A DNA stretch of 64,000 nucleotides from Dehalococcoidia bacterium. Lineage in GTDB: Bacteria; Chloroflexota; Dehalococcoidia; Lucifugimonadales; UBA3495. Of the stretch, positions 2,632-59,817 are shown piece after piece. Under the pieces are notes generated by a model. That model had not been told where the DNA came from. It did no database searches and worked only from the letters and a program-made list of their open reading frames with translations. The stretch is taken from NCBI GenBank assembly GCA_963666865.1, contig OY763072.1, positions 842,572 to 906,571 of the forward strand. The letters run 5' to 3'. The position numbers and the translations under genes were made by a program. Each line of letters begins with the position of its first letter. Position 1 is the stretch's first letter.

Positions 2632-2878
2632 CTAGTATTACAGTCGCGCTTAGTTTGATAGTATGAGCCCATGACTACTGGTGAGAGCGGAGGGGTTGGA
2701 GATGGGTCGGGCGTTGCTGGAGGGAGAGGCGGTCCTGAGGGAAGTGCTGGAGTGGGAAGTTGGGTTGCGGGCGCTGCACGAGCGTATCGGTCATCGTTTT
2801 AGTCGCAGTGAGTCGCGGCAGCGGGTTCTGTCGTACCTGCAAGGATTGCTGGGGTCGGTGGAGCGCAAGAACGGGTGG

Positions 2879-2893
2879 TCCGCCTGCGGCGGA
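2879..2893. repeat. TCCGCC-N3-GGCGGA palindrome (loop TGC) in IS701-like tnp
   Basis: tccgcctgcggcgga. Coincides with the switch from the 2681 frame to the 2875 frame. Confidence 0.9.
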
Positions 2894-2928
2894 CCGAGTA
2901 CGCTGGGGACGCCACCCCCGACGGGGTG

Positions 2929-2943
2929 TCCGCCGGAGGCGGA
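2929..2943. repeat. TCCGCC-N3-GGCGGA palindrome (loop GGA) in IS701-like tnp
   Basis: tccgccggaggcgga. In frame (SAGGG); the region is 2 aa longer than in the homologue at 55.6 kb. Confidence 0.9.
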
Positions 2944-3620
2944 CTGGCGGTGTACCACTGGGATGCGGATGAGGTGCGGGATGATCTGCAAGGGTACGTG
3001 GTGGAGCATCTGGGAGACCCAGAGGCGGTGCTGGTGGCGGATGAGACGGGGTTTCTGAAGCAGGGGAGGAAGTCGGTGGGGGTAAAGCGACAGTACAGCG
3101 GCACGGCGGGGAAGGTGGAGAACTGTCAGATCGGAGTGTTTTTGGCCTATGGCAGTTGTTACGGCGCCGCTTTTCTGGATCGGGAGTTGTATTTGCCCCA
3201 GGAATGGGCGGAGGATGTGGAGCGGCGGCAGGAAGCTGGGGTGCCGGAAGAGGTAATTTTCCATACCAAAGGGGAACTGGCCCAAACCATGATTGCCCGG
3301 GCGGTGTCGGCTGGGGTGCCCTTTGGCTGGGTGGCTGGCGATACGGTGTACGGCAACGACCGGCGACTGCGGCGGTGGCTGGCGGAGCAGAGCCTGCCCT
3401 ACGTGCTGGCGGTGAAGAGCAATGAGCCCCTGTGGGCCGACACGGAGCGTGGCTCGGCCCAGGTGGCGGCCCGGGAGTTGGCCCAGCAGATACCCGATGA
3501 CCAGTGGCAACGTCTCAGCGCTGGAGACGGGTCCAAAGGGCCACGCCTCTAAGATTGGGGCCGATTGCCGATCCGTCCCTGGTCAGAACCGGACCCGGGG
3601 CATTGGCTGTTGGTGCGTCG

Positions 3621-3635
3621 TCCGCCGCAGGCGGA
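3621..3635. repeat. TCCGCC-N3-GGCGGA palindrome (loop GCA) in IS701-like tnp
   Basis: tccgccgcaggcgga. Sits between HWLLVRR and TDPEDLAYY, which are in different frames. Confidence 0.9.
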
Positions 3636-3821
3636 CCGATCCCGAAGACCTGGCCTATTACGCCTGTTTTGGAGCGGCGGAAGTGCCGCTGGCCGAACTG
3701 GTGCGGGTGGCGGGCAGCCGCTGGATCATCGAAGATGCCTTCAAAGAAGCCAAGCAGGAAGTGGGTCTGGACGAATACGAGGTGCGCCGATGGGTGGGAT
3801 GGTACCGGCACATCACCCTGG

Positions 3822-3836
3822 TCCGCCTGAGGCGGA
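3822..3836. repeat. TCCGCC-N3-GGCGGA palindrome (loop TGA) in IS701-like tnp
   Basis: tccgcctgaggcgga. Sits between WYRHITL and [10 protein letters not shown], which are in different frames. Confidence 0.9.
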
Positions 3837-4102
3837 CTGGCCCATGCCTTTCTGGCAGCGACCCGGCGCTACGCCGTCGGTGGCCATGGCAAAAGGGGGC
3901 GGTCCCCCCGGGAGAACTCATCCCGTTGACCGTGTCCGAGGTCAGACTGCTGCTCTGCCGGCTGCTGTGGCTACCCCGAGGCAGTCCTGCCCTGACCATC
4001 CAATGGTCAGGATGGAGACGCCGGCATCAGGCCCGGGCTAGACAGTGTCATTACAAGAGACGCTTTCTGAGACTTTCACCACAAGCGCGACTGTAATATT
4101 AG

Positions 4103-6097
4103 GATCCAGACCAGGTCACGGTGACCCGGTTGGTCTCGGTTGATTCGTTTCCATTCGGGTTCCAGAAACGCAGGTAGTACGTGTGCGTTCCGGCCGTGCT
4201 CTTGGAGCGATACGCTGACCCGAACGCTCCGGATGCGCCTTCGCGGTCCGTTTCAGAGCCATTAGTCATCTCCACTAAGATGAAGGACAGTTGACTTGCG
4301 TGCACCGGCGGGTTTTGTATCGTTACGCTCAACTTCACTGATTGCCCAACGTTGGGAGAAGTATTGCTGACGTCTAGCGTGGCCTGGGAGATGGGACCCA
4401 CCTCGATCAGCACGCCGATGGTGTGGTCGACGGTGTCGTTGGCATCCTTGCCGTCGCTCACTCCCAGCGTCAGGTCGTAGGATGGTTCGGTTTCGTAACG
4501 CAGATTGGCGCCACTGGCGACTGCAACCTGGGCGTCGCCCGAGACCGACGATACGGTGCATTTGTCCGCGCCTGCCCCGGTCAGAGTGAAGGTCAGCGTG
4601 TCGCCGGAGTTGGGTTCCTTGACTGGTATCGGGTCACCCACAGGGGTTCCAGCCGGGGACTTATCCAGCACCGACCGCGTTATCTGGAACATCGGGTCCA
4701 CGTTGCCGCTGCTCACTACCGCGATCACAGCCGTGTTGTTCGACGGATCCGTGTCCAACACCGGCAACTTGTATTTCTCCACGGTCTTCCCGTTATCCTC
4801 GGTTTCCGTGATCTTCACGCGCTCCGTGGCGGATATGGCCGCTTTCAAGTCCAACTCCTGTCCGTGGGTCCCGCATCCACCGTGGCCTTGATGGTCAGGG
4901 TCTTCGAGGCGCCGGACGCCAGGCTGCCGGCGTCCCAGGTCCAGACACGATCGCTGTCGCTGTCGGCGAAGGTATCGCTGGCCGGGGCGTGAGACGAGTA
5001 GGTCAGTCCCGGAGGCAGAGTGACGTCAACGCTGGTTTCGGGCGCAGTCTCCGGGCCCGCATTGCTGGCGGTAATTGTGATGGTTACCGTGTCATTAGGC
5101 GAGGGGTTGTCCGGCGTGACCGTAGCCGTGACGCCGAGGTCGGCTTCTGCGACCACATGAATGATGTACGTCCGCATGTCGCTAGTCACGCTGTCATCCG
5201 GGCTTATGGGCTTCAGACCATCGGACCGTTTGGTAGCGTGGTTGGGGTTGCCCCTGATGTGCACCTGGAACTCGTAAGTGCCGCGGCTGGTGAAGAACAA
5301 CCTGGGGCGTTCGTACCCTCCGGACGCCACCTGCATTTCGGCGACCTGTGCATTGGTCGAATTCCATGGAAGAGTTTCCTTTCGTACGCGAGCGTGTACC
5401 TCGGGTCCTGCCTGTCGATATCAGTTTGGTGAACGTGGTCCAGCAGGTACTCGACCACGAAGCCGTCTTTTTCGTTCAGATCAGTCCAATCCAACGGATT
5501 CAGCAGGGCGGCGGAGAAGGTGATACACAAATCGTTGCTCGCGGGGGTCCCTTCCGGGGGACACGCCGGCAACGCCCATACGATGCCGTCGCCAACTCCA
5601 TCGGGCGTACCGTTGTCGTCGGTGTCGCGGTCTTCCTTAGCGTCGGCTATCCACAGGTCCCCGTACTTGGTCTTTGGATAGTCGGTTTCGTTCAGAGTGA
5701 CCTTGGCGCTATTCGGGATGGGGATGATGGTTTTATCGATGTCGATGCTGGACGGGAAGCGGTCATCCCTGGCCGTATGGCCTCCACGGCCTTTCTGCTC
5801 CGGAACGTGCGTCACCGTGGGCGGGCAGGAGGTGTTGGTCAGCTCCTTCTCGACCGGGTTCCAGTACACGTCGAACAGTGCGACGTGGACGGAATCGACC
5901 AAACTGACCGCCACATCGTTGGTATTGCCTTTCTCACCCGGACAAGGTTTAGGCGCAGCATGGCGCGGGGTTGGGGTCTTGCTCTGCGGTTGTGGCAGCA
6001 GGCTGTCGCTGCCGCCAGAGGTCGGGAGTGCGGTGGTGGCCAGGGCGGCCGCCGCAAAGACGGAAAGTTGCATTCTCTTTCGGTTCATGGTATTCAT
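4103..6097 (-). pseudogene. 5' part of the secreted repeat/adhesin-like protein (signal peptide, DUF11 and cadherin-like repeats), frameshifted and cut by the IS
   Basis: AAGGAGA precedes ATG 6097. Signal peptide MNTMNRKRMQLSVFAAAALATTALP. Frameshifts near 5340 and 4855 (ORFs 5213..6262, 4845..5336, 4099..4854). The present stop lies inside the IS inverted repeat. Confidence 0.7.
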
Positions 6098-10230: not shown

Positions 10231-11190
10231 ATGTTTTCCATATTCAAACGCAACCGGGCGGAGACGAACCGCCAGCAGACCGACGCCGGAGTGAAACGCA
10301 GCCGGGACAGCTGGTTTGGCCGCATCCGCAACCTGTTCACATCCCGGGAGTTGGACGATTCCATCTGGGACGAAATCGAGGAAATTCTCATCTCCGCCGA
10401 CGTCAGCGTCGATACGACCATGGCGATGCTGGACGACCTGCGAGCCGATGTCCGGGCGGGTCGTGTTGGCGATGGGGAGGCTGCCTTCTCCCGGCTCAAG
10501 GAATTGCTGGCGGCGGAACTGGCCGCCGAGGACGACCCCGACGTGTGGCTGGATGACGACAGCATCGCCGCGCCCTACGTGATACTGGTTTGCGGCGTGA
10601 ACGGCGTGGGCAAGACCACCAGCATCGCCAAGCTGGCGCACCACTTCACCGCATCCGGCAAGAAGGTGATGTTGGGCGCAGCCGATACCTTCCGCGCCGC
10701 CGCCGAGGAGCAGTTGGAGATTCTTGGCGAACGGGCCGGTGTGGACGTGATCAGCCACCAGCACGGCGCCGACCCCGGCGCGGTGGCTTACGACGCCTGG
10801 CAGGCCGCTCACGCCAGGGGCGCCGACATCCTCATCGTTGATACCGCCGGCCGGCTTCATACCCGCAACAACCTGATGGACGAACTGCGCAAGGTGCGGC
10901 GGGTCATCAACGGCCTGGACGACGCTGCGCCCCACCAGGTGCTGCTGACCCTGGACGCCACCACCGGCCACAACGGCCTGACCCAGGCCCAGGCTTTCAC
11001 CGACGCCGTGGGCTGCACCGGCATCTTCCTGGCCAAGCTGGACGGCACCGCCCGGGGCGGCATCGTGCTGTCCATCCGCCGCGAGCTGGGCGTGCCCATC
11101 CTGTTCATCGGCACCGGCGAGGGCTTGGACGACATCGCGCCTTTCGACGCCCACGAGTTCGTTGATGCCATGCTCGCGCCGGCATCCTGA
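10231..11190 (+). CDS. ftsY: signal recognition particle receptor FtsY
   Basis: [20 protein letters not shown] and [14 protein letters not shown]-GTPase motifs. Confidence 0.9.
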
Positions 11191-22665: not shown

Positions 22666-24528
22666 ATGAAGATCGCCGTCTGCGTTAAATTTGTCCCCGT
22701 AGTTTCGCGCATCGAGTTCGACTATGAGAACAAGGTGATACAACGGGAGGGTGTGCCGTCGGAGATTAATCCCTTCGACCTGTTGGGCATCAACATGGCG
22801 GTGGACCTGAAAGACGGCGATGCAGACTCAATAATCGCTTTGTCAATGGGTCCACCCAACGCCGCCGAGGGCCTCACGCAGTGCTACGCGCTGGGCGCCG
22901 ACCGGGCCTTGCTGCTGTCCGACCGGGCATTGGCCGGCAGCGACACGCTGGCGACGGCGCAGGCCCTGGCCCTGGCCCTGCAGCGTGAGGCTCCCGACCT
23001 CATCGTCTGCGGACGCAACAGCAGCGACGCCGAGACCGGCCAGGTGGGGCCGGAAGTCGCTGAGCTGATGGGACTGCCCCACATCAGCAACGTCCGCAAG
23101 CTGGAGGTGGACCGCTCCGCTAACCGCATCACGGTCGAGCGCGTGACCGACGAGGGCTATCAGGTGCTGGAATGCGGGCTGCCCGCAGTGGTGTGCGTCA
23201 CGGAAGGGGCCGGCCAGGAACGCTATCCGGGTCGGGAGGAAATGGCCGAGGCGGAGGGCAAAGCCATTGAGCAGTTGACCTGCGCTGATTTGACCGATCC
23301 GCCACAGGCGGACTTGTTCGGACTGGAAGGCTCGCCCACGTGGGTTGAGGACATCCGCCTGGTGGAACCCGACCGGCTGGGTGTGGTGATCCGGGACGAG
23401 ACGCCGGAGGACGCGGCACGGCAAGTCGCTGATATGCTCCGGGAACGGCTGGCCACGATAACCGCCGCAGGAGAGCAGGGTTCCGGCGACGCGGCGGCGG
23501 TGCGCTACGCCGGCGGGGACCGAAGCATCTGGGTGTTGGCGGAGTTGGCGGGTGGCGGCGTGCGGCAGGTTACGCTGGAAATGCTGGGCAAGGCCCGGGC
23601 GCTCGCTCCAATCACCCAGAGCGAGGTGGTAGCGGTTGTTATAGGCGAAGGTGCGCCGGATGAGGCCATCACCGGGCAATTGGCGGAGTACGGCGCCGAC
23701 CGCATCCTGACGCTGGATACCACCGGGCTGGGTATGCTCTGCGGTCGCGGCGTGGCGGACACGCTGTCCGATGCCATCGCGCAATCCGCCTCCGGCGGAC
23801 CCTACGCCGTGCTGTTCGCGGCCACCGCCGACGGGCGGGATCTCGCCGCCCGCATCGCCGCCCGGCAACGCCTTGGCCTCACTGGCGACGCCATCGACCT
23901 GGAGATCAACGACGCCGGCCAGTTGGTGCAGTTGAAACCGGCCCTGGGCGGCAACGTGGTTGCGCCCATTCTGTCCAAAACCCTGCCGAACCTGGTCACG
24001 CTGCGGCCGGGCGTGCTGACGCCGGCAGCGCCGGAACCGGGTGCGACGGCGCCCGTAGAAGCCATCGCTCCATCACCCGCCGCCGGCTCCGACGCAACAT
24101 TGGTCAGCGAGCATCTTTCCGAGGAACACGGCGCGCTGGAACTCACCTCCGCCGAGGTGGTGGTCGGCCTCGGTATGGGGGTGACGGAAGAGGGAGTGCC
24201 CGCCGCGCAGAAGTTGGCGTCAAGCATAGGCGCGTCCATCGCTACGACCCGCAACGTGGTGCATTCCGGCTGGCTGCCGCATCACATCCAGGTGGGCATC
24301 AGCGGGCGCACCATCGCGCCGCAGGTCTATCTGGCGGTGGGCATCCGGGGAGCGTTCAACCACACCGTCGGCATACAGAAAGCCGGCATTATCCTGGCCA
24401 TCAATCGCAACCACCGGGCGGCCATCTTCCGCGCCGCCGACTACGGGATAGTCGGCGACTGGAACGAATACCTGCCGCCGCTGGTTGAGGCCATCGGCCC
24501 GGTACTGGCGGAGCACGGGCTGGGATGA
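22666..24528 (+). CDS. fused electron-transfer flavoprotein, EtfB (N-terminal) plus EtfA (C-terminal), 620 aa
   Basis: N-terminal MKIAVCVKFVP...NPFD...GPEVAELMGLPH (beta subunit). C-terminal PQVYLAVGIRGAFNHTVGIQKAGIILAINRN (alpha subunit FAD site). Confidence 0.8.
   Translation: MKIAVCVKFVPVVSRIEFDYENKVIQREGVPSEINPFDLLGINMAVDLKDGDADSIIALSMGPPNAAEGLTQCYALGADRALLLSDRALAGSDTLATAQALALALQREAPDLIVCGRNSSDAETGQVGPEVAELMGLPHISNVRKLEVDRSANRITVERVTDEGYQVLECGLPAVVCVTEGAGQERYPGREEMAEAEGKAIEQLTCADLTDPPQADLFGLEGSPTWVEDIRLVEPDRLGVVIRDETPEDAARQVADMLRERLATITAAGEQGSGDAAAVRYAGGDRSIWVLAELAGGGVRQVTLEMLGKARALAPITQSEVVAVVIGEGAPDEAITGQLAEYGADRILTLDTTGLGMLCGRGVADTLSDAIAQSASGGPYAVLFAATADGRDLAARIAARQRLGLTGDAIDLEINDAGQLVQLKPALGGNVVAPILSKTLPNLVTLRPGVLTPAAPEPGATAPVEAIAPSPAAGSDATLVSEHLSEEHGALELTSAEVVVGLGMGVTEEGVPAAQKLASSIGASIATTRNVVHSGWLPHHIQVGISGRTIAPQVYLAVGIRGAFNHTVGIQKAGIILAINRNHRAAIFRAADYGIVGDWNEYLPPLVEAIGPVLAEHGLG
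23785..23799. repeat. TCCGCC-N3-GGCGGA palindrome (loop TCC), the only copy outside an IS
   Basis: tccgcctccggcgga, in frame (SASGG) inside etfBA. Confidence 0.8.
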
Positions 24529-43669: not shown

Positions 43670-43927
43670 ATGCCGTACCTGCTCGACAGCCTGGCAAGGA
43701 GCGCACGCGCGATGAGTTGGATCAGCAACGCCGTAAGGAGCGCACGCGCGATGCGTTGGGTTACCAACGCAATCTTTTTCGTCGGGGTGCCCGCCGGCAT
43801 TGTTGCAGGGCTTGACGTGGGCGGGCAATGGGACGTTCCCGAGTGGCTCCTTTACACGTGCGCCCTGGCCATCGCAGTAGTCCTGGTAGCCGGGATAGCA
43901 GTGGTCATTTTCGCCAAGGCGGACTAG
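43670..43927 (+). CDS. small membrane protein with a 33-nt tandem repeat
   Basis: ARSARAMSWISNAV / RSARAMRWVTNA repeat (about 43696..43761), then two hydrophobic helices. Confidence 0.35.
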   Translation: MPYLLDSLARSARAMSWISNAVRSARAMRWVTNAIFFVGVPAGIVAGLDVGGQWDVPEWLLYTCALAIAVVLVAGIAVVIFAKAD

Positions 43928-46797
43928 CTGACTCCCGCCGTATCAGGGCCCGGCCCCGCCCGCTCCAGGTTCAGCGCCAGCAGTCGTTCCAGTATCTCCC
44001 CGTCCGCCAAATCGGCCGGCCAGCCATACGCCTCGGCAACGGCGGCATCCAGGGCGGCGTGGGCGTTGCTCAGCCAGGTGGGACGCTGGTTGTAGAGATT
44101 GGTCAGCGTGCGGCGGCGTCCGCCGAGGCGGACTCCGCTGAGGTCCGTCGGATTCAGCCAGTTCTCCCGCAGGCGGTTCAGCTCAGCGGCGGCCGCGACG
44201 ATGGCCTCCCGCTGCTCGCCGGCGGGATGGGGGAAGGGGAAGGTTTCAAAGCACGTTGTTGGCGTGTAGCGCAGTCCGCTCGTCGCTTCACGCAGCTGAG
44301 TACCCATCGCCGTCGCCCAGAGAATGTGTATTCGGCTTTGCAACACTCCAAAGAAATAATCGTCATCACGAGCGAACACAATAATAGTAGCGTCAGGCAA
44401 TACCTCACCATCAATCCAACGAAACATCCGGTGTCTGGACACCATGCTGGTGCCAACGTAGCGTCCTAAACCGGCCAATGCCTGCCGCATACCGGGGCGA
44501 GCCTCGGCATGTATCCACCACAGTTGAGCGTAACGTTTTCTTCTGTTTTGAATCCTGTCGGGCTTTACATTCGCCGCAACATACTCAAAGGGTGCCTCGT
44601 ACAGAGCGGCATCGGACTCCGGCATATCTACGCCGAAGTCAATTATCCACATATGCCGGGAGCGCTGGTTAATGTCTCTGCCTATCATCCAACGCCTGAT
44701 GACATCACTGTTTGGCTTGCCGTGAGGATTGGGGGCACTCAACATCTCCTTCGCAACTTCGCCAGTTATTTCAAAAGGACCAACCTTCGTATCCCCCATG
44801 AAACTGATACTTGCATTTTCTTCCAGCCTCCGCGCCAGCGCCAAATCAGCCCCTGCCGTCAAGTCAACATTGATATTTGTAACCGCATGACCGTCCAGAT
44901 AGCGGTCAGTATCGCTCCCGTCGTCAAAACAGACGATGGAGACATGCACGGCGGCTCCCTCCAGCACCCAATCCTTATCTGACATGGCGGCAAAAATATC
45001 GCCGGTCTCTTTGATGCGAGCAAGCACCGGCCGGTTAGACTGGAACCGTATTGCTTGTGTCGCCAACAGGCCGGTCCGCTTGGTAGCGCCCGATGCAATC
45101 TGGCCCCGCGCTTTTTCGAACCAATAGCAGCACAGGTCGCTGTAGTTGGGAATGCGGTTGCCGTAAAGCGAGTACGCTGCACTTACGTAGTCATCGCCTA
45201 GCGACTCACGAAAAGGGAAATGGCCCAAAAACGGCGGGTTCCCCACGATAAACTCCGCCGCCGGCCATTCCGGTTCCGCGGGATGCTCCGGGTTAGACAG
45301 GTCAAGAATAGCGTCGGTCTGGCGGATGGTATCCAGCGGGGTCAGTATCGGGCGGTGGGTGTAGGGGAAGCCGTTGGCCTGGTGCCATTGGATGTAGCCA
45401 ATCCAGAGGGCGGTGCGGGTCAGTTCGGCGGCGTAGTGGTTGATTTCGAGGCCCAGCATCTGGTCGGGCTGCACCGTGGGCGTCAGGCCATGCCAGCCCT
45501 GGGCCGCGGCGAAGTCGATGACCTGTTTCTCCAAATCCAGCAGCGAGCGCAGGGCCAGGTAGAGGAAGTTGCCGCTGCCGCAGGCCGGGTCCAGCACGCG
45601 CACGCCGGCCAGCCGCTTCTGGAACTCCTCCAGCCGTTGCCGCGCCGGCGTATCGTCAGAAGCAGGATTCGCCGGATTGGTGGGATTGACCGGATTGGGG
45701 GGTTCTCCATCATTGAACGGCTCCAATCCTGATAATCCTTCAAATCCCGAAAATCCTGCTTCTGACAAAAGCTCCTCAATCTCCCGCCGGGCGGCGTCCC
45801 ACTCCCGGCGTAGCGGCTCCATCACTACCGGGTCAATGACCAGCATGATGTCGTCGGCGCCGGTGTAGTGGGCGCCCAGTTGGGAGCGTTTGGAGGCGTC
45901 CAGGGCTCGCTCGAACAGGGTGCCGAATATGGACGGCTCGATGTTGCGCCAGTTCTTCTGGGTGGCTTCGCCCAGCCGTTGCAGGGCGGTGGCGCTCAAT
46001 TCCACCGTGTCCCCGGATCCTTGACCAAATCCCTTGAACAGGTCCCCGTTGAAGTGGGGAATCTCGTCGGCCCCGAACAGGCCGCCGCCGGCCATTTGGG
46101 CAAAGAGGTCGGCCACGGCCTGATTGAACAAGTCCTGGCGGCGGAACAGTTGGCGCACGGTACGGGTGAACAGTCCCTCGGGCAGCAGTCCGGCGTCCTC
46201 GGCGTAGAGGCAGAAGACAATCTGGTTGAGGTAGCGGGCCAGCCGTTCCGGCCCCGTATCGGAGTACGGGGTGACGTTGTCTATGCGGGCCTCCATGTCG
46301 GCCACGATGTCGCGGAACAGGTCGGCGGTTTCCTGGGTAACCTGCTCCACCGTGCGGTTGGGGCGGAACTCGGCCGGCGCGAAAAAGGCGTTGCGCAGCT
46401 TGTCCAGATGTTCGGGCCGGTCCAGCTCAGCGACGGGGATCACGTGGAGGATGGTTTCCAAGCCCGGAAAGTTGGTGCGTATCCGGATGGTGTCGAAAGA
46501 CGACACGATGAGCAGGGGCGGCGTTTTCAGATAGACCTGGTAGCGTAGCAACTGGTTGATGGCTTCCGGCAGCTGCGCGTCGCTGCTTTTGAACTCCCAG
46601 CCGAACCGCTCCTCCAGGTAGGCGTCGGCAAAGCCGCCGGGCACCGCCTTCTCGAAGGTGAAAACCTCCGGGTTGCCGTAGGCCACCGGCGTGGGATGAC
46701 CCACCAGGGCGCAGATGTCCAGGAACATCTCCTGCGACGCCTGCTTCTCGCCGAAAGTGACTCCCTGCCACTTGGCGATGAACTGCTGGGGAGTCAT
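43924..46797 (-). CDS. MmeI-like type IIL restriction-modification enzyme (nuclease plus N6-adenine methyltransferase in one chain)
   Basis: N-terminal GFADAYLEERFGWEFKS (D...ExK as in the MmeI family), LDPACGSGNFL (motif I), GNPPF (motif IV), 957 aa. GGAG lies 9 nt before ATG 46797. Confidence 0.8.
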   Translation of the reverse strand: MTPQQFIAKWQGVTFGEKQASQEMFLDICALVGHPTPVAYGNPEVFTFEKAVPGGFADAYLEERFGWEFKSSDAQLPEAINQLLRYQVYLKTPPLLIVSSFDTIRIRTNFPGLETILHVIPVAELDRPEHLDKLRNAFFAPAEFRPNRTVEQVTQETADLFRDIVADMEARIDNVTPYSDTGPERLARYLNQIVFCLYAEDAGLLPEGLFTRTVRQLFRRQDLFNQAVADLFAQMAGGGLFGADEIPHFNGDLFKGFGQGSGDTVELSATALQRLGEATQKNWRNIEPSIFGTLFERALDASKRSQLGAHYTGADDIMLVIDPVVMEPLRREWDAARREIEELLSEAGFSGFEGLSGLEPFNDGEPPNPVNPTNPANPASDDTPARQRLEEFQKRLAGVRVLDPACGSGNFLYLALRSLLDLEKQVIDFAAAQGWHGLTPTVQPDQMLGLEINHYAAELTRTALWIGYIQWHQANGFPYTHRPILTPLDTIRQTDAILDLSNPEHPAEPEWPAAEFIVGNPPFLGHFPFRESLGDDYVSAAYSLYGNRIPNYSDLCCYWFEKARGQIASGATKRTGLLATQAIRFQSNRPVLARIKETGDIFAAMSDKDWVLEGAAVHVSIVCFDDGSDTDRYLDGHAVTNINVDLTAGADLALARRLEENASISFMGDTKVGPFEITGEVAKEMLSAPNPHGKPNSDVIRRWMIGRDINQRSRHMWIIDFGVDMPESDAALYEAPFEYVAANVKPDRIQNRRKRYAQLWWIHAEARPGMRQALAGLGRYVGTSMVSRHRMFRWIDGEVLPDATIIVFARDDDYFFGVLQSRIHILWATAMGTQLREATSGLRYTPTTCFETFPFPHPAGEQREAIVAAAAELNRLRENWLNPTDLSGVRLGGRRRTLTNLYNQRPTWLSNAHAALDAAVAEAYGWPADLADGEILERLLALNLERAGPGPDTAGVS

Positions 46798-46880
46798 AAC
46801 CACGCTCCATGTTGAATGATGCAAAGTCTGGGAGTTATGCTACCATTGACTGACGATTACTGCTGGACGGGTACTTAATT

Positions 46881-50101: not shown

Positions 50102-51290
50102 GCAGGGCTATCGCATATGAAAAATTGAGGTGTCAGGTAAGATAGCGTCCAAACTGCTGAGGTGGGGAGGACACCATGAGCGAGCTAGCGGACGTATTTG
50201 GCGATTTGGAAGACCCTCGGGCCGTCAATGCGCGTCTCCATTCCCTGCACGACATTCTGGTCATCGCTCTATGCACCATCGTCTGCGGCGGTCAGACTTG
50301 CACCGACATGGAGCTTTTCGGGCATTCCAAACGGGAGTTTCTGGAGTCCTTTCTGAATCTGGAAAACGGCATTCCCAGCCACGACACTTTCTCCCGGGTG
50401 CTGGGCAAACTGGATCCGGAAGCTTTCCAGCGGTGGTTTTTGAGGTTCATGGAACAGTTCGCTCAAGGGGTTCAGGGAGTGGTGGCCATGGACGGGAAGA
50501 CCTTGCGGCGTTCTTACGACCACGCGGCAGGACAGTCCGCCCTGCATCTGGTCAGCGCTTGGGCGGAAGAGCGGCGCCTGGTGTTGGGACAATTGGCCGT
50601 TGACGACAAGTCCAACGAGATTACGGCGTTGCCCAAGCTGTTGGAAATGTTGACCTTGCAAGGCAAGGTGGTTACCGTCGATGCCCTGAATTGTCAGCGT
50701 CAGATTGCTCAGCAAGTGATTGACCAGGAGGGCGACTACGCGCTAGCGTTGAAAGGCAATCAAGGTACGCTCTACGACGATGTAAAACTGTTTCTGGACG
50801 ACGCGGACACGCCGGCAGCTCAGGCCACCCAGGTCAGCAAGGGCCACGGACACATTGAAACCCGCACCGCCAGTATTAGCGACGACGTAGCCTGGCTGCA
50901 GGAATGGCACGACTGGCCGGGCTTGCAGGCCGTGGGTAAAGTAACAGCGGTCCGCCGTAAAGACGGCGACACCAGCGAGGAAACTCGTTATTACCTGCTG
51001 AGCCAGGCCTTCCCGCCGGAGCATTGCAACGACATCGTGCGCGGCCATTGGGGCATTGAGAACCGGCTGCATTGGGTATTGGACGTAACCTGCAACGAAG
51101 ACCAGGCGCGGAACCGGAAAGGGCATGGCGCGGAGAACCTGGCGTTGCTGCGTAAGTTGGCGCTGAATCTGGCGCGGTTGGAACCAAGCAAGGGGTCCAT
51201 GCGGGGCAAACTGAAACGGGCCGGTTGGGACAACTGCTTCCTCATCAACATCCTCTCCCAATTCACCAAAATCCATATGCGATAGCCCTG
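50102..51290 (+). mobile_element. ISAs1-family insertion sequence, apparently intact
   Basis: Perfect 17-bp inverted repeats cagggctatcgcatatg (50102..50118) and catatgcgatagccctg (51274..51290). Confidence 0.9.
50176..51285 (+). CDS. ISAs1-family (H-repeat-associated) transposase
   Basis: 369 aa uninterrupted; DPR...H.L.DIL, AMDGKTLRRS, DALNCQ and HWGIENRLHWVLDV motifs. Confidence 0.9.
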   Translation: MSELADVFGDLEDPRAVNARLHSLHDILVIALCTIVCGGQTCTDMELFGHSKREFLESFLNLENGIPSHDTFSRVLGKLDPEAFQRWFLRFMEQFAQGVQGVVAMDGKTLRRSYDHAAGQSALHLVSAWAEERRLVLGQLAVDDKSNEITALPKLLEMLTLQGKVVTVDALNCQRQIAQQVIDQEGDYALALKGNQGTLYDDVKLFLDDADTPAAQATQVSKGHGHIETRTASISDDVAWLQEWHDWPGLQAVGKVTAVRRKDGDTSEETRYYLLSQAFPPEHCNDIVRGHWGIENRLHWVLDVTCNEDQARNRKGHGAENLALLRKLALNLARLEPSKGSMRGKLKRAGWDNCFLINILSQFTKIHMR

Positions 51291-52689: not shown

Positions 52690-53092
52690 GGCTCCGCCGC
52701 CTTCGTGCCTCCGCCTCCGGAAGACATCCCCGCCCTGCTGGACGACCTGATGGCCTTTTGCAACGACGACGGGCTATCTCCCTTGGCCCAGGCCGCCATT
52801 GCTCACGCCCAGTTCGAAACCATCCACCCCTTCGTGGATGGCAACGGGCGCGCCGGATGGTCACTGGTTCACCTGGTGCTGCGCCGACGTGGGATAGCAA
52901 CGCGGTTTCGGCCGCCGGTCTCCCTGGTCCTGGCGACGTGGGCAGAGGACTACGTAACGGGGCTTACGACCACTCGCTACGTCGGCGAACCCAGGCTCGG
53001 AGGCTGCCCACAAGGGCATGAATCGCTGGGTCGCCTTCTTTCCCGGAGCGTGCCGGCGAGCGGTGTCGGACGCCCGACAGTTCGAGGATCCG
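52690..53092 (+). pseudogene. Fic-domain protein remnant (N-terminal part missing, 3' end run into IS)
   Basis: AAFVPPPPEDIPALLDDLMAF...AHAQFETIHPFVDGNGRAG (Fic HPFxDGNGR motif). Stop at 52684..52686 in the same frame just upstream. Confidence 0.75.
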
Positions 53093-53207
53093 GGCCAGCT
53101 GAGATAGCGGGGTGAAGTGAGACCATGCTGGGCGAGCGATCCGACCAGAGGGGCCTGTGGGAGGCGGACCAGTTGTACTTGGATCTGGTGGGTAAGGACA
53201 CGTTCTA

Positions 53208-53222
53208 TCCGCCCATGGCGGA
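53208..53222. repeat. TCCGCC-N3-GGCGGA palindrome (loop CAT) in IS1182-like tnp
   Basis: tccgcccatggcgga, at frame switch 1. Confidence 0.9.
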
Positions 53223-53617
53223 CTGGCCTCGTTGCGGGGCCAGCTGTTCCGCGACGCCGACTTCGCCGAGCTGTACTGCCTGGACAATGGCCGGGTCAGC
53301 GTGCCGCCCAGCCTCCTGGCCACGGCGCTGCTGTTGCAGACCCACGACAAGGTGAGCGACGCCGAGGCCAAGGCTCGGGCCGACTTCGACATCCGGTGGA
53401 AGGTGGCGTTGGGGATTGAGATCGAGGATCGGCCCTTTGCCAAGAGCACACTGCAGGTGTTCCGTGCCCAGTTGATCCTGCACGACAAGGTGCGTGAGGT
53501 GTTCGAGCAGAGCCTGCGGTTGGCCCGTGAGGCCGGCTACCTGAAGGGAAAGCGTGGGATGCGGGTGGCGATGGACACGACGTACATCCTGGGACGCGGT
53601 GCGGTGAAGGACACCTA

Positions 53618-53632
53618 CCCGCCTGAGGCGGA
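53618..53632. repeat. (C)CCGCC-N3-GGCGGA palindrome (loop TGA) in IS1182-like tnp
   Basis: cccgcctgaggcgga, at frame switch 2. Confidence 0.9.
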
Positions 53633-54105
53633 TTGGCCGACGGCATCGTGAAGCTGATGCGGGCTTTGGCGGCGGTGGAGGGTATTCCGATGCGGCGCTG
53701 GGCGGAGGGCCACGGTTACAAACGCTACGTGGGCAGCAGCGTGAAGGGAGAGGCGGCCATCGACTGGTCCAACCGTCGGGCGCGGCGGAGGCTGTTGGGA
53801 CAGATTGTGGCGGATGCCGACCGGCTGCTGGAATTGGCCCGTCAGGCCCAGGACGCGTTGGACGCCGACAGCGCCGAGCGGCAGGCGATAGTTGACGCGG
53901 CGGAGTTGCTGGGCCAATTACTGCTCCAGGACGTGAAGCGTGGTGACGACGACGATAATGGTGACGGCGGGGTGAGCCTGAAAGAGGGTGTGAGCAAGGA
54001 CCGGATGGTGTCGGTGCACGATCCGGAGATGCGCCACGGCCACAAGAGCAAGAGCAAGAGCAAGCGCTTTGACGGGCACAAGGCCGCGGTGGTGGTGGAC
54101 ACCGA

Positions 54106-54120
54106 TCCGCCTCAGGCGGA
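54106..54120. repeat. TCCGCC-N3-GGCGGA palindrome (loop TCA) in IS1182-like tnp
   Basis: tccgcctcaggcgga, at frame switch 3. Confidence 0.9.
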
Positions 54121-54205
54121 TTGATCACCGCGGTGGACGTTTTGGCGGGCAACGCTGCCGACAATCTGGGAGCGCTGGAGTTGGTGGAGCAGAGCGAGGC
54201 CAGCG

Positions 54206-54220
54206 TCCGCCGCAGGCGGA
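54206..54220. repeat. TCCGCC-N3-GGCGGA palindrome (loop GCA) in IS1182-like tnp
   Basis: tccgccgcaggcgga, in frame (VRRRR). Confidence 0.9.
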
Positions 54221-54950
54221 TACCGGTGGTGGAGGCCATGGGTGACACTGCCTACGGCGACGGTGGCACCCGCCAGGCTTTCGCCGACGCGGGGCGCAAG
54301 CTGGTGGCCCGAGTGCCGGGCCGTCCCAACCGGAAGTGTTTCCCCAAGGAAGACTTCATCATCGACCTGACCCAGGGAAGTTGCACCTGTCCGGCGGGAC
54401 AGGTCACCTGCACCATCGTGCCGGCGGGGAAACGAACCGACAGTGCTGGGACGGTGCATCGTCTGCAAGCCTTCCGCTTTGACGGTGCGGTGTGCCAGGG
54501 CTGTCTGCTGCGGTCCCGATGCTTTACCGCCACAGGCAGGAAGGGAAGGCAGGTGCTGATCCACCCGCAGGAAGGCTTGTTGCAAGAGGCTCGGGCGTTG
54601 CAGCAGAGCGCTGACTACGACCAGTACCGGCAACTACGCGTGGTGGCGGAGCATCGACTGGCTCGGCTGGAGCAGTTGGGCATCCGTCAGGCCCGTTACT
54701 TCGGGCGGGTCAAGACCAAGTTCCAGTTGTACCTGGCCGCCACGGTGGCGAACTTAACCCTGATGGCCAACCAAACCGGTGTGGTCGGTAATTCTGGCGA
54801 TGGCTCCGACTGCATCGTCGCCACCGCTCAAATTGGCGGTAATCTCGGCGTGGGTCGGCACCTAACGACAACCCGGATGCTGGCTTGGCTCAGGTCGCCA
54901 ACACTGGCCCTATCTCTCTCTCCGATCAAGGCTTTCCGGCCCGCTTTCTA

Positions 54951-55833
54951 GCAGCCAGTAGCCCTTGCCCGGTTCTCTCAGGGGACGTATTTCCACGGCG
55001 GCCCAGTCGTAGACCCGGGGGCCTTTGGCTCCATCGCCGGCGCTGCATCTGATCCAGTCGGCCTCGTCAACCTGCGCCGTCAACCGGTCAGCCCTCACCT
55101 GTCTGGGACCCTTGTCCGTCAAAGCCTACAGCTTCTCGTTGCGCTTGATGGCCAGCACGTGGGGAATCCCCTGACGCTCCAGCCACAGCCGCAACTTGCG
55201 GTCACTGCCGTAAACCTCGTCCCCGGTAAACCAAGCGAAGGGAACACCCGATGCCAGAGCCCGCTCCAACATCTGCCGGGCCAGTTGCCCCTTGGTCTGA
55301 AAGCCAACGCTCTCAGGCACCCTGGCCTCGCGCCGCCGCTCCCGGTCATCAGCCCACACCTGGGGCAGGTACAGCTCCCGGTCCAGCAGTGTCCTGCTAT
55401 TGGCCGAGGCATAGGACAGGAATGCCCCAATCTGACAGTTCTCGATCCGCCCCGCCGTACCGCTGTACTGGCGCTGCACCCCAGCCGATTTCTCCCCTTT
55501 CTTGATGAATCCGGTCTCGTCCACCACCAGGACCGCATCTCCGTCGCCCAGATGCTCGACCACATACTGTTTCAGATCATCCCGGACCAGGTCCGCGTCC
55601 CAGATGTAACCCGACAGCAGGCGCTGCACACCGTAGGGAGTGGCGTCGCCCGCTTGCTCCGCCAACTGCCAGCCGTTCTTGCGTTCTACCGGGCTGAGCA
55701 ACCCTTTCAGATACTCCAGGGCCCGCCTGCGCGGCTCCGGCCGCTGAAACCTGCCTGCGATGCACTGGTGTACCCGCTCAATGCCCTCGGCCCACCGGGC
55801 GACCTCCGCCACCTCGTCTCTCCCAACAACCAT
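54951..55833 (-). pseudogene. IS701-family transposase remnant (copy 2), 3' third removed by the IS1182 insertion
   Basis: [21 protein letters not shown]...[32 protein letters not shown]...; in-frame TAG (NEKL*ALTDKG) where copy 1 has Trp. Ends at ...GKGYWLL next to the IS1182 end. Confidence 0.8.
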
Positions 55834-55940: not shown

Positions 55941-56755
55941 ATGGAAATTACGGAAGAACAGTACCAACGGATCGCGCCGCACTTCCCCGTACAGCGAGGC
56001 AACGTCAGCATCCCCAACTTGCAGGTGTTGAACGCTATCCTCTACGTCAATGAGCACGGTTGCAAATGGCGGGGTTTGCCTCCGTCCTTTGGTGACTGGC
56101 ACACCATCTATACTCGGATGAACCGCTGGTCCAAAAAGGGCGTGCTGGATCGGGTTTTCGCGGCCTTGCAGGAGGAGGGAATTGTCCGGGTCAATGTGGA
56201 GGTGACGGCCTTGGACAGCACCAGCGTGAAGAGCCTGCCCCGTACTGGATACGGGGTGCATCCGGACGGCGCTGGGGCGCTCAAAAAAGCGGGTTGCAAG
56301 CCATCGGCAAGTCCCGGGGCGGCTGGAACACCAAAATTCATCTGGTTGCCATCCGCCTGGGGCGGAAGCGCAATGCGGTGACCCCGTATCAGGTACGGGG
56401 CAGGCTCTTTGCGCTGTCGCCCGGGGAAGCTCATGACGGGCCGGAGGGCCGCCGCCTGTTGGAAAGTTTGGGGCCGCAAGAACCTGGGACCAAGTTGCTG
56501 ATGGATCGGGCCTATGAAGGCAACCCCACCCGCGGGTTGGCGGTGGAATTGGGGTATGACCCGGTAGTGCCGCCGTTGCGCAGTCGGAAAGAACCCTGGG
56601 AATATGATCGGGAGATGTACAAAAGGCGGAACGAAGTCGAGCGACTGTTCCGGCGGTTGAAAAGGTTCCGCCGCATCTTCAACCGATACGACAAGCTGGA
56701 TGCGATTTTCAGCGGCTTCATCCTGTTCGCCCTCATCTACGATGCCCTGCAATAG
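55941..56755 (+). CDS. IS5-family transposase OrfA/OrfB (two frames; a -1 shift is needed)
   Basis: OrfA ...NAILYVNEHGCKWRGLP...; OrfB QAIGKSRGGWNTKIH...MDRAYEG...RNEVERLFRRLKRFRRIFNRYDK. Contains three short palindromic extra segments, so activity is doubtful. Confidence 0.65.
56238..56256. repeat. CCCCGTA-N5-TACGGGG palindrome (loop CTGGA) in IS5-like orfA
   Basis: Lies within an in-frame extra 8-aa segment (SLPRTGYG) relative to the expected VKxH..AAGA. Confidence 0.8.
56283..56289 (+). promoter_or_regulatory. A6G slippery run at the orfA/orfB overlap (possible programmed -1 frameshift or transcriptional slippage)
   Basis: ctc aaa aaa gcg. A -1 shift gives ...LKK-SGLQAIGKSRGG. Confidence 0.45.
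56352..56366. repeat. TCCGCC-N3-GGCGGA palindrome (loop TGG) in IS5-like orfB
   Basis: tccgcctggggcgga. Part of an extra segment of about 11 aa between HLV and FALSPGEAHD. Confidence 0.9.
56382..56400. repeat. CCCCGTA-N5-TACGGGG palindrome (loop TCAGG) in IS5-like orfB
   Basis: ccccgtatcaggtacgggg, 15 nt after the previous palindrome. Confidence 0.85.
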
Positions 56756-57083: not shown

Positions 57084-57855
57084 TCACGGCGTCACCTCGT
57101 ACTCCACCTGCGCCACCTTTCGCTCCCCGTCGTACATCATTACCCAGTAACGGCCCGTAACCCACCGGTCGGGATCGGAAGGACCCAGCGGAGTTCTCCA
57201 CCAACCGCTGGTTCTTCCTGGCTGAAAATAAAAGTCGAAAATCTCCCTGTCAAATGCGAAGCCGTCCATGTAGTACTCCACTGTCTCAAGGGGAACGGAT
57301 ATGAGTTCGGTGGATTGGGAGAACTCGAACCTCCGGTACAAGTACACCCGGCCCTCGATCTCCTTGAGCTCCGAGATCGACACTTGGGACGTCCGCGTGT
57401 CCGCGTCCGCCGGCCATTCCTGGTCCAGCGAGATGAATGCGTCCGCAATCCGCCCGTTGATGCTCGGTAGGCTGGGATCTGCCGGCCGATCATCCAGGTA
57501 GCTCAGGTCGTACGGCTCGGTACCGTAGTACCACCGGTTGATCACTGTGTCCACCGCTGCGATAACATCAGGCCCGGCGCCCTTTTTGAACGCATCGTCC
57601 ACCGCGTCAATGCCACCGTGGACGCTCCGTCCCTTTGTCGCTCGGTACAGGTTGCGGAACCCTTGCTGGAACTGATCCCGTCCCAGCGTCCGGTACAGGT
57701 CCAGGAACAGCCGTTCCCCCAGCGAGTAGTTGCAACTGAACTCCGCCCAGTAGCCGCCGCCTGGGTTCTGGGGATCCGCTCGGTCCAACTCGCCCAGGTT
57801 TGCGTAGTAGGCGCATGGACCCCAGTCCGCGGTCAGCGGTGCGCCGGTGAGCGTG
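57084..57855 (-). pseudogene. C-terminal fragment of an unidentified (possibly peptidase-like) protein, 5' part removed at the IS1182 copy 2 junction
   Basis: Coding-like 257 codons (…YYANLGELDRADPQNPGGGYWAEF…). The apparent ATG at 57872 lies inside IS-derived sequence. Confidence 0.5.
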
Positions 57856-57872
57856 TTATCCACGGTGATCAA

Positions 57873-57887
57873 TCCGCCTGAGGCGGA
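57873..57887. repeat. TCCGCC-N3-GGCGGA palindrome (copy of 54106..54120)
   Basis: tccgcctgaggcgga. Confidence 0.9.
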
Positions 57888-58354
57888 TCGGTGTCCACCA
57901 CCACGGCGGCCTTGTGCCCGTCGAAGCGCTTGCTCTTGCTCTTGTGGCCGTGGCGCATCTCCGGATCGTGCACCGACACCATCCGGTCCTTGCTCACACC
58001 CTCTTTCAGGCTCACCCCGCCGTCACCATTATCGTCGTCGTCACCACGCTTCACGTCCTGGAGCAGTAATTGGCCCAGCAACTCCGCCGCGTCAACTATC
58101 GCCTGCCGCTCGGCGCTGTCGGCGTCCAACGCGTCCTGGGCCTGACGGGCCAATTCCAGCAGCCGGTCGGCATCCGCCACAATCTGTCCCAACAGCCTCC
58201 GCCGCGCCCGACGGTTGGACCAGTCGATGGCCGCCTCTCCCTTCACGCTGCTGCCCACGTAGCGTTTGTAACCGTGGCCCTCCGCCCAGCGCCGCATCGG
58301 AATACCCTCCACCGCCGCCAAAGCCCGCATCAGCTTCACGATGCCGTCGGCCAA

Positions 58355-58369
58355 TCCGCCTCAGGCGGG
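58355..58369. repeat. TCCGCC-N3-GGCGG(G) palindrome (copy of 53618..53632)
   Basis: tccgcctcaggcggg. Confidence 0.9.
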
Positions 58370-58764
58370 TAGGTGTCCTTCACCGCACCGCGTCCCAGGA
58401 TGTACGTCGTGTCCATCGCCACCCGCATCCCACGCTTTCCCTTCAGGTAGCCGGCCTCACGGGCCAACCGCAGGCTCTGCTCGAACACCTCACGCACCTT
58501 GTCGTGCAGGATCAACTGGGCACGGAACACCTGCAGTGTGCTCTTGGCAAAGGGCCGATCCTCGATCTCAATCCCCAACGCCACCTTCCACCGGATGTCG
58601 AAGTCGGCCCGAGCCTTGGCCTCGGCGTCGCTCACCTTGTCGTGGGTCTGCAACAGCAGCGCCGTGGCCAGGAGGCTGGGCGGCACGCTGACCCGGCCAT
58701 TGTCCAGGCAGTACAGCTCGGCGAAGTCGGCGTCGCGGAACAGCTGGCCCCGCAACGAGGCCAG

Positions 58765-58779
58765 TCCGCCATGGGCGGA
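58765..58779. repeat. TCCGCC-N3-GGCGGA palindrome (copy of 53208..53222)
   Basis: tccgccatgggcgga. Confidence 0.9.
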
Positions 58780-59304
58780 TAGAACGTGTCCTTACCCACC
58801 AGATCCAAGTACAACTGGTCCGCCTCCCACAGGCCCCTCTGGTCGGATCGCTCGCCCAGCATGGTCTCACTTCACCCCGCTATCTCAGCTGGCCCGGAGT
58901 ATAACCTCCACTTCGCCAGGCGGGGTTTCCGGCCAGCTTTCTAGGGCGTGTCGTCAAATTATTTTAGTCCAGAGTGCGATGGCGCGGATCTGGCAGTTAG
59001 CCAAGAAAGAAGCGGCTTTCTTGGCATATCGGGTCGCAACCCCGCGCCATTGCTTGAAGTTGCAAAATCCATTCTCCACCAAGTGCCGCGCCTGGTACAA
59101 ATCCCGGTCGTATTCCCGCTGCTCCCGACGGTTGCTCCGGGGCGGTTTCACCACGTTCATCCCCCACGATGATGCCATGGCCACGATTTGATTGGTGTCA
59201 TACCCTTTGTCCGCCAGCAGATGCTCCGCCGCGATACCCTCGATCAATGCCAGCCCCTGAGTACAATCGGCAGTGGCGCCTGCCGTCAGTATCATCCGCA
59301 CCGG

Positions 59305-59319
59305 TCCGCCTCTGGCGGA
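59305..59319. repeat. TCCGCC-N3-GGCGGA palindrome (loop TCT) in IS5-like tnp
   Basis: tccgcctctggcgga, between DAH and PVRMILTAG (frame switch). Confidence 0.9.
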
Positions 59320-59537
59320 TGAGCATCCACCGCCAGATGGAGCTTACTGTTCAGCCCCCTTTGGTGCGCGCGATGGCCTGGTTCCCGCCCACGGCGCCAG
59401 CAGCATGAAGATGCACCTTGATATGACTGGCGTCAATCATCAGCCACTCAAAATCGGGGTCGTCAATCACCGCTGCCAGCAACCAGTCCCACACGCCCCG
59501 GTCCCGCCAGCGGCAGTAGCGACGATGAGTGTTCTTC

Positions 59538-59552
59538 TCCGCCTTTGGCGGA
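59538..59552. repeat. TCCGCC-N3-GGCGGA palindrome (loop TTT) in IS5-like tnp
   Basis: tccgcctttggcgga, in frame on the coding strand (PPKAE) inside DYG-PPKAE-KNTHRRY. Confidence 0.9.
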
Positions 59553-59817
59553 CCGTAGTCTGGGGGAAGGTCCCGCCAAGGCGCGCCGGTGCGTAGTATC
59601 CAGAATACGGCGTTGAGAAACCGGCGGTTGTCCGGGGCGGGTCGGCCCACCTTGCCCGCGCCGCCGGGCAAAGGGGGGCGAGGATTTGCCAAACTCGGTC
59701 GGAAATGTCGTGCCGGCGATGTGATGCTGCCATATGCTACCCTGCCTTTGACCCATGTACAGCACCAATTTATCATTACACCTCAATTTGACGACACGCC
59801 CTAGCAGCAGTAGGTGG

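Follow-up and report, generated by a model that had tools for sequence, protein, structure and literature searches.

A family of 15-nucleotide hairpins that stand in place of short native stretches in insertion sequences and genes of a Dehalococcoidia bacterium

How does a transposase gene come to be broken three times, with the same small palindrome at every break? The question is raised by a 64,000-nucleotide (nt) stretch of a Dehalococcoidia bacterium genome (contig OY763072.1, positions 842,572 to 906,571; hereafter the window), which carries an IS1182-type insertion sequence (IS) element whose transposase frame is interrupted at three hairpins. A first-pass annotation of this DNA had placed a palindrome at each of the three breaks of this element (copy A), a fourth in frame at 54206, and the first three again, with the same loops, in an inverted truncated copy (copy B). 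The coordinates and loops at the breaks and the in-frame position of the fourth palindrome were confirmed, and alignment of the two copies verified the counterparts in copy B [Table 1]. Related loci are cited below by L number and open reading frames (ORFs) by P number.

The repaired transposase has the domain architecture of the IS1182 family (DUF772, DDE_Tnp_1 and DDE_Tnp_1_6) and close full-length homologues. Homologues of the repaired protein numbered 6623, of which the best 46 listed are 80-90% identical and nearly all full-length, and the best 120 are 72-90% identical and mostly full-length. The transposase frame of copy A (53125..54951) is broken three times, the breaks reading PPMAD, PPEAD and PPQAD. 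Removal of 14 nt at each of the first three sites yields, as the annotation had proposed, a single clean 594-aa ORF spanning 53125..54951, but it does not restore the family-typical protein that had been expected from it: 20 intact homologues (76-93% identity in the alignment) read KDTFY-GL-LASL, KDTY-NL-LADG and VDTD-SQ-LITA at these positions, the GL, NL and SQ pairs are nearly invariant, and two residues are gone at each break. At the fourth site, homologues read SEASA-DV-PVVE and the window SEAS-VRRRRI-PVVE. Alignment with intact homologues, which the annotation had recommended to define the extra nucleotides, thus did define the change at the breaks, not as a clean 14-nt insert but as a net gain of 8 nt with 6-7 native nt replaced.

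The same signature was found wherever filled and empty alleles could be compared, which was at 11 distinct sites, using as hairpin-free references L001 and L002 for IS1182, L054 and L175 for an IS701-like element, and L041 and L042 for a gene of electron transfer flavoprotein (ETF). At all 11 the 15-mer stands in for 5-9 native nt, with no target-site duplication, the net change being +10, +9, +8, +7 or +6 where 5, 6, 7, 8 or 9 nt, respectively, were replaced. Since native nucleotides are overwritten, excision of a hairpin cannot restore the gene. The replaced stretch begins with CAG directly after a purine (R/CAG, the slash marking the boundary), on one strand, at 8 of the 11 sites, against an RCAG background of 0.021 per nt (P ~6e-12, or ~4e-8 allowing three-fold slop in the boundary). 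The lost stretch is mostly C...G, and the flanks, R...Y, are target-derived. One boundary is thus exact, and the position of the other shifts by a few bases. The first base at site 53618 is still C, which makes a 14-mer an equally good reading of the insert. The pre-insertion alleles at the 11 sites hold neither stem arm. Eleven filled/empty pairs for a repeat shorter than 30 nt are what defines an element of the small dispersed repeat (SDR) kind by insertion against orthologous empty sites. Miniature inverted-repeat transposable elements, which span 50-500 bp and combine terminal inverted repeats with target-site duplication, differ from a 15-nt unit at which target bases are lost; nor does removal of the insert give back the native coding sequence, as for an intron or a bypassed segment, the GL, NL and SQ codons being overwritten.

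Across the window the motif occurs at 16 sites (30 strand-matches), against 0.23 expected from shuffled sequences and a shuffle maximum of 2. Fourteen of the 16 lie within five IS elements or fragments from three IS families, and the other two, both in frame, in the EtfB-EtfA gene; the motif is therefore not tied to the IS1182-type element, and recurs at 2879, 2929, 3621, 3822, 23298, 23785, 56352, 59305 and 59538. Palindromes with a 6-bp stem and a 3-nt loop number 42 in the window, 14 of them of the TCCGCC type, and the loop is 3 nt long in all 14 perfect copies. The family consensus is R-TCCGCC-NNN-GGCGGA-Y (15 nt, 6-3-6), with a pyrimidine directly after GGCGGA in 24 of 26 half-sites, and the units fold as single-stranded DNA at -5 to -8 kcal/mol. 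Loops are biased, TGN or its complement NCA accounting for 8 of 13 unique events against 0.125 by chance. Neighbouring copies within the same genes lie 50-930 nt apart, and across the family the hairpins are read in several phases (PPxAD five times, SAxGG three times, RxxR twice). Copies with one or two mismatches occur at chance level only, and there is thus no tail of decayed elements; the GGCGGA hexamer outside hairpins is neither enriched nor avoided, in the window or in relatives. A variant with a 2-nt loop, TCCGCC-GA-GGCGGA, lies at position 44119 in a gene of the MmeI family. Because the stem is constant across unrelated genes, the loop always measures 3 nt and the target is purine/CAG, the hairpins are one element family with a defined target and not local fold-back products.

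Several other derivations were tried and set aside. If each loop had lost one base from a perfect 16-mer, TCCGCC-TGCA-GGCGGA, 7 of 13 loops would be explained, but the 16-mer itself does not occur. Copying of the loops from the target is not claimed, the tally of loop trinucleotides being marginally above chance. An origin in a tRNA or other known RNA found no footing in the window, which holds one tRNA-Val and no other Rfam match, and a scan of viral contigs for a phage link gave almost solely single, chance-level matches.

The two IS1182 copies place the hairpins in time. Copy A is 5′-truncated, its left inverted repeat gone and its right one ending at 54951, and copy B is without the 3′ 40% of the element; neither copy has the two inverted repeats and the intact ORF of a complete element. 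Over 1042 nt they are 99.2% identical, differing by 2 substitutions and one 6-nt gap. Copies A and B are thus dead fragments, and their hairpins are lesions rather than removable inserts; three +8 events and one +9 event preceded duplication of the element. The annotation had concluded that the hairpins predate the duplication, and the three hairpins and loops shared by such similar copies bear it out. Of the options it had left, the copying of an already disrupted element is the right one; that the hairpins do not abolish expression is unlikely, since 6-7 native nt are overwritten. Site 3 is probably the oldest IS1182 hairpin, to judge by its presence in both L047 (loop CCA) and L048 (as TGCGCC-TGA), and sites 1, 2 and 4 are private to the lineage of the window. 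A universal hot spot at site 3 was considered and rejected, as the breaks there in L049-L052 are ordinary 1-nt frameshifts.

Some further features of this element deserve mention. Copy A holds an extra AAGAGC unit (54038-54061, against 57930-57950 in copy B), reading KSKSKS where copy B and intact homologues have KSKS, which is simple repeat slippage. At 57856-57890, ORF 57084..57872 uses a TTG start inside the copy-B remnant, which means that a deletion end-point adjoins the palindrome. A fragment of a Fic-domain gene (52705-53115) is cut off by copy A. Finally, dozens of IS1182-type ORFs from many assemblies (P0131, P0133, P0136, P0144, P0147 and P0150 among them) end identically in ...LPGNA followed by PH, MD or IH and a stop, which suggests either a break that recurs or a sister subfamily naturally built of two ORFs.

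Hairpin-free alleles dominate among relatives: 41 of 44 related ETF loci are without a hairpin, and 4 copies were found in the 0.94 Mb scanned, a set that also includes L001 and L002. ETF hairpin A is common to the window and to the independent metagenome-assembled genome (MAG) of L042 (94% ETF identity), with the same loop, and is absent from L003, L004, L041 and L044; hairpin B is absent from all 8 orthologues aligned, the closest relatives and L042 included. Among the IS701-like elements, site 3822 is also filled in L054 (loop CGA) and L176 (loop TGA) and empty in L175, and site 3621 is filled in L176 too (loop ACA). At site 2879 the window has a +8 event with loop TGC, and L176, whose IS lineage is only 82% identical, a +9 event with the inverted loop GCA and 6 nt replaced; given the different junction and the inverted loop, L176 represents an independent event at the same G/CAG. 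As independent assemblies share some copies and are without others, the hairpins are genuine, recent, heritable and still being gained. Stem differences over six shared sites amount to 1 of 72 positions, against 18.5% in the flanks (P = 7e-6) and 4 of 18 positions in the loops. The stem sequence, beyond mere pairing, is thus constrained or continually renewed, and its conservation argues for a sequence-specific partner.

Another perfect copy, TCCGCC-TCT-GGCGGA, lies at L175:20287, within the open ORF of a different DDE_5 transposase gene (456 aa); the genome is OZ242004, and its ETF locus (L045) is free of hairpins. Further hairpin-bearing relatives are ERZ25068633 ctg160185, OY762251 and JAGWBI01, and hairpin-free ETF loci occur in OY843611 and CAYGAY01. 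In L042, around position 10770, the ETF orthologue shows a 22-nt gap against all other orthologues in the EtfB-EtfA linker, with a match length that is not a multiple of three, which may be a frameshift or an assembly error. The window belongs to a marine bacterium of the SAR202 group within the Dehalococcoidia, and its closest matches are MAGs; going by accession series and isolate names, we take many of these to be sponge-derived. A search of Joint Genome Institute (JGI) metagenomes for further IS701 copies gave one distant match only.

The copies are distributed very unevenly. IS DNA (6.9 kb) holds 14 copies, or 11 unique events, other coding DNA (49 kb) holds 2, and the ~8 kb of non-coding or unassigned DNA holds none, against ~17 predicted from the IS density (P ~2e-8). 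The motif is therefore not equally common in ordinary genes, which the annotation had named as an outcome that would tell against it. In L176, all 5 copies sit in two IS701-like copies and none in the remaining 18 kb, where other broken genes and an IS630-type element are found. Because the hairpin-bearing transposase ORFs P0241 and P0288 are still open and have spread, the IS bias is partly explicable by hitch-hiking; the empty ~8 kb still allows for genuine targeting of IS or multicopy DNA. Most copies in non-essential DNA shift the frame, and both copies in the single-copy ETF gene are in frame (+6 and +9).

What, then, writes these hairpins? The comparisons establish one lineage-restricted family of palindromic micro-insertions, each copy of which replaced 5-9 nt, usually starting at purine/CAG, without duplication. 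Our favoured reading, in which we place a little better than even confidence, goes on to take the 15-mers as minimal non-autonomous elements akin to repetitive extragenic palindromes (REPs) and SDRs. A sequence-specific trans-acting enzyme with its gene at some other place in the genome would recognise the hairpin or inverted repeat, and IS-borne copies would then hitch-hike as the IS transposes or moves between genomes, which would help to concentrate copies there. The nearest mechanistic model would be an HUH/Y1 single-strand transposase, of the REP-associated tyrosine transposase (RAYT) or IS200/IS605 type, cutting short specific sites beside hairpins. RAYTs cleave CT or CA dinucleotides that adjoin small, perfect palindromes, such as a 10-nt palindrome interrupted by 4 nt (PMC8266576). 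Several points weigh against a replacement element of this kind. Neither the window nor any fetched locus yielded an HUH/Y1 or reverse-transcriptase gene, and the GTAG/CGTC tag that defines REPs is absent from the 15-mer. To our knowledge, HUH transposition leaves the target intact, and the loss of 5-9 target nt is without precedent in that family. The junctions showed no microhomology in favour of a simple copy-choice route. Hitch-hiking and selection may also be insufficient to produce the compartment bias, given the empty ~8 kb.

A rival reading is directed tagging or inactivation of IS elements: a host or competing mobile-element system would cut R/CAG, with a preference for transposase genes or multicopy DNA, and seal the cut with the 15-mer, the stem serving as a protein-binding site. 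The counts by compartment speak for this, as do the confinement of the L176 copies to two IS701-like copies, the L004 copies sitting in multicopy REP-like units, and a stem that is conserved while flanks and loops drift. We nevertheless consider it unlikely, as the ordinary ETF gene has two copies, an intact ISAs1-like transposase in the window has none, the hairpin-bearing P0288 and P0241 are open, no associated gene is known, and hitch-hiking on active IS lineages can raise IS counts without any targeting. No greater credence is due to its boldest form, an enzyme system new to science that would write a fixed 15-nt hairpin over R/CAG(N2-6), favouring IS4-superfamily transposase genes and multicopy DNA, as a "hairpin-tagging" mutator that disables or marks mobile elements and whose stem is kept by a bound protein. 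Slightly less probable again are scars left by imprecise exit of a larger transposon with 6-bp termini TCCGCC.../...GGCGGA, the 3-nt centre being the repair junction. Constant arms, a variable centre, small target losses without duplication, as is typical of end-joining repair, and the possibility of one site being struck repeatedly would all suit such scars, but arms always of 6 nt around a centre always of 3 nt are more regular than end-joining would leave, the window and ~1.3 Mb of related loci showed no longer element bounded by these termini, and the IS elements present all have other ends.

The annotation had itself favoured locally generated hairpins, which could arise by template switching or fold-back synthesis at breaks, with the loop taken from the target. 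The loop trinucleotide or its reverse complement does lie in or beside the replaced segment in ~6 of 10 events, marginally above chance, and copies do cluster within the same genes; we find this improbable all the same, since one stem hexamer recurs in four unrelated gene families and several genomes without being derived from the flanks, is missing from the pre-insertion sequences of the 11 sites, is not enriched as GGCGGA outside hairpins and comes with a loop of invariable length and no junction microhomology. A shade lower we would put selected protein-recognition sites, for example the paired inverted sites of a Type IIG/IIL restriction-modification (R-M) enzyme. GGCGGA is the recognition site of EciI, which cuts at 11/9 (PMC3899748), the window has a gene of the MmeI family (43924..46824), and both the pyrimidine after GGCGGA and the conserved stem would fit. 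The hexamer is, however, of normal frequency in the window and relatives, the flanking R and Y come from the target, the MmeI-like protein has specificity residues that, placed by alignment to the MmeI structure, match no known code, and frameshifting insertions of +8 in dead IS copies cannot be the product of selection. Removal or bypass at the RNA or ribosome level, which would let the transposase still be made, is suggested by the three IS1182 breaks sharing one phase (PP-x-AD) and by the single ORF obtained when 14 nt are taken off each; it is very improbable, as the 6-7 nt encoding the nearly invariant GL, NL and SQ are gone, phase varies across the family with net lengths of +6 to +10, both IS1182 copies are end-truncated and the IS701-like copy also has a nonsense codon. 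An assembly or consensus artefact at hairpin-forming sequence can practically be dismissed: orthologous sites carry identical copies in independent assemblies from different projects (L042, L047, L048, L054 and L176).

Table 1. Elements, host genes and hairpins of the window (window coordinates; the slash marks the boundary of the replaced stretch)
Feature	Position	Strand	Basis or effect
IS701-like (DDE_5) element	2633..4104	+	both inverted repeats; aligned to L054 (92.4% nt identity), L175, L176
Hairpin, loop TGC	2879..2893		replaces G/CAGTTAG (7 nt), net +8
Hairpin, loop GGA	2929..2943		replaces G/CAGCGGTTG (9 nt), net +6, in frame
Hairpin, loop GCA	3621..3635		replaces G/CAGCATCG (8 nt), net +7
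Hairpin, loop TGA	3822..3836		replaces CCCTG (reverse complement G/CAGGG, 5 nt), net +10
EtfB-EtfA fusion gene, 620 aa	22666..24528	+	Pfam ETF + ETF_alpha; 44 orthologous loci; ordinary single-copy gene
ETF hairpin A, loop ACA	23298..23312		reads PPQAD; replaces ~9 nt (DLS in orthologues), net +6, in frame
ETF hairpin B, loop TCC	23785..23799		reads SASGG; replaces G/CAGCCT (QP), net +9, in frame
IS1182-type element copy A	53089..54951	+	alignment to intact L001, L002; Pfam DUF772 + DDE_Tnp_1 + DDE_Tnp_1_6 on repaired ORF
Hairpin 1, TCCGCC-CAT-GGCGGA	53208..53222		replaces (Y)GGCCTG (codons GL), net +8, frameshift
Hairpin 2, CCCGCC-TGA-GGCGGA	53618..53632		5-bp stem (first base C); replaces AATCTT (codons NL), net +8, frameshift
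Hairpin 3, TCCGCC-TCA-GGCGGA	54106..54120		replaces CAGYCAA (codons SQ) at A/CAG, net +8, frameshift
Hairpin 4, TCCGCC-GCA-GGCGGA	54206..54220		replaces CCGATG, net +9, in frame; A-DV becomes VRRRRI
IS5-like element A	55941..56755	+	DUF4096 + DDE_Tnp_1
Hairpin in IS5-like element A, loop TGG	56352..56366		reads IRLGR
IS1182-type element copy B	57863..58945	-	inverted; left inverted repeat intact (58926..58945); ends 16 nt past hairpin 3
Copy-B counterpart of hairpin 3	57873..57887		
Copy-B counterpart of hairpin 2	58355..58369		
Copy-B counterpart of hairpin 1	58765..58779		
IS5-like element B, broken	58954..59776	-	DUF4096 + DDE_Tnp_1
Hairpin, minus-strand loop AGA	59305..59319		between ...LHLAVDAH and VRMILTAG; frame break, net +8 inferred from frames
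Hairpin, minus-strand loop AAA	59538..59552		in frame, YG-PPKAE-KN

The IS701-like element at 2633..4104 is a pseudogene, with four hairpins, a nonsense codon and the -1-frame C-terminal extension of its family. The nonsense codon (TAC to TAA at 3550..3552; GPRL-stop-DW against GPRLYDW in homologues) is a lesion independent of the hairpins. Throughout the family (window 3840-3935 and the equivalents in L054, L175 and L176), the final ~55 residues (ELIPLTVPEV...HYKRR) are encoded in the -1 frame, downstream of a GGCAAAAGGGGG run; the majority of homologues end at 398 aa and a few are fused (P0242 and P0332), and the extension may reflect a programmed frameshift. The +10 hairpin at 3822 joins the upstream ORF directly to the -1 extension frame. 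The ISAs1-like transposase free of hairpins (DDE_Tnp_1_assoc and DDE_Tnp_1) occupies 50176..51285.

Other palindromic modules accompany the 15-mer. A second family, CCCCGTA-N5/6-TACGGGG, at times with outer arms GAGCCTG/CAGGCTC, occurs at 46253-46274, 56239-56257 and 56383-56401 of the window and at L010:16634, L033:20630, L041:1147 and L054:142. Two of its window copies lie in IS5-like element A, where they read SLPRTGYG and TPYQVRGRL, and the one at 46253 in the MmeI-family (Type IIL) R-M gene, which is intact (966 aa, minus strand). In L033 and L041 this hairpin forms the centre of REP-like GTCATTGCGA...GGCAATCTCG units; three such units in L004 hold the TCCGCC hairpin where the window unit (57024) has CGACG. 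L004:5288-5760 consists of seven tandem 70-bp repeats, each with a TCTCCC-CTTGT-GGGAGA hairpin, adjoining arrays of the REP-like unit GCGAGCGAAGCG(C/T)GGCAATCTCGG. Small hairpin modules landing in genes, in IS elements and at the tips of other repeats are a general trait of the lineage.

If this description holds, the 15-mer ranks with the smallest insertional repeat elements described from any prokaryote. We know of no transposition chemistry that matches a fixed 6-3-6 hairpin, an R/CAG target and 5-9 nt overwritten without duplication. The defined signature offers a handle for an enzyme search in which hairpin-rich and hairpin-free sister genomes are compared. For annotation of sponge-associated SAR202 (Chloroflexota) genomes, it implies that "frameshifted" transposases and odd insertions of 2-3 residues can share a single cause, and a simple motif search flags both. 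The IS bias, unless hitch-hiking accounts for it, would indicate a new means by which mobile DNA is held in check.

Among known systems, REPs are short palindromes of 20-50 nt, mainly extragenic, whose hairpin has the conserved tetranucleotide GTAG or CGTC at its foot (PMC8266576); the smallest are a 10-nt palindrome interrupted by 4 nt or one of 16 nt interrupted by 3, and the RAYT enzyme cuts short CT/CA sites beside the hairpin without target duplication (PMC8266576; PMC3733652). The 15-mer resembles them as a short, GC-rich, perfect palindrome with a 3-4-nt loop, high copy number and restriction to a lineage. It differs in falling below 20-50 nt, in having neither GTAG nor CGTC and flanks that share only R...Y, in the location of all 16 copies in coding or IS DNA with none in the ~8 kb of non-coding or unassigned DNA, and in deleting 5-9 target nt at R/CAG, with no RAYT gene in the window or the fetched loci. 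The cyanobacterial SDRs described by Elhai et al. in 2008 (Genome Res 18:1484, cited in PMC3116915) are reportedly 21-27 nt long, partly palindromic, mobile by comparison of orthologues, and nested in repeats and genes, their enzyme being unknown; compared by description only, the 15-mer is unlike them in being a perfect 6-3-6 hairpin from a different phylum, with a defined R/CAG replacement target and a strong IS bias. GC-rich hairpins that invade coding sequence are also familiar from fungal organelles, where mitochondrial GC clusters, double-hairpin elements and 'byp' elements measure 30-80 nt and some are bypassed by the ribosome; the 15-mer, in contrast, destroys native codons, and bypassing cannot therefore rescue the protein. 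Rickettsia palindromic elements insert in protein-coding genes and survive as in-frame additions (PMC10969869), much as both ETF copies and IS1182 site 4 persist in frame; those elements are ~150 bp long and form a peptide module, whereas the 15-mer adds a net 2-3 codons and is mostly frameshifting. The 15-mer is thus a very small variant of the palindromic repeat-element theme, with a replacement signature that is unprecedented.

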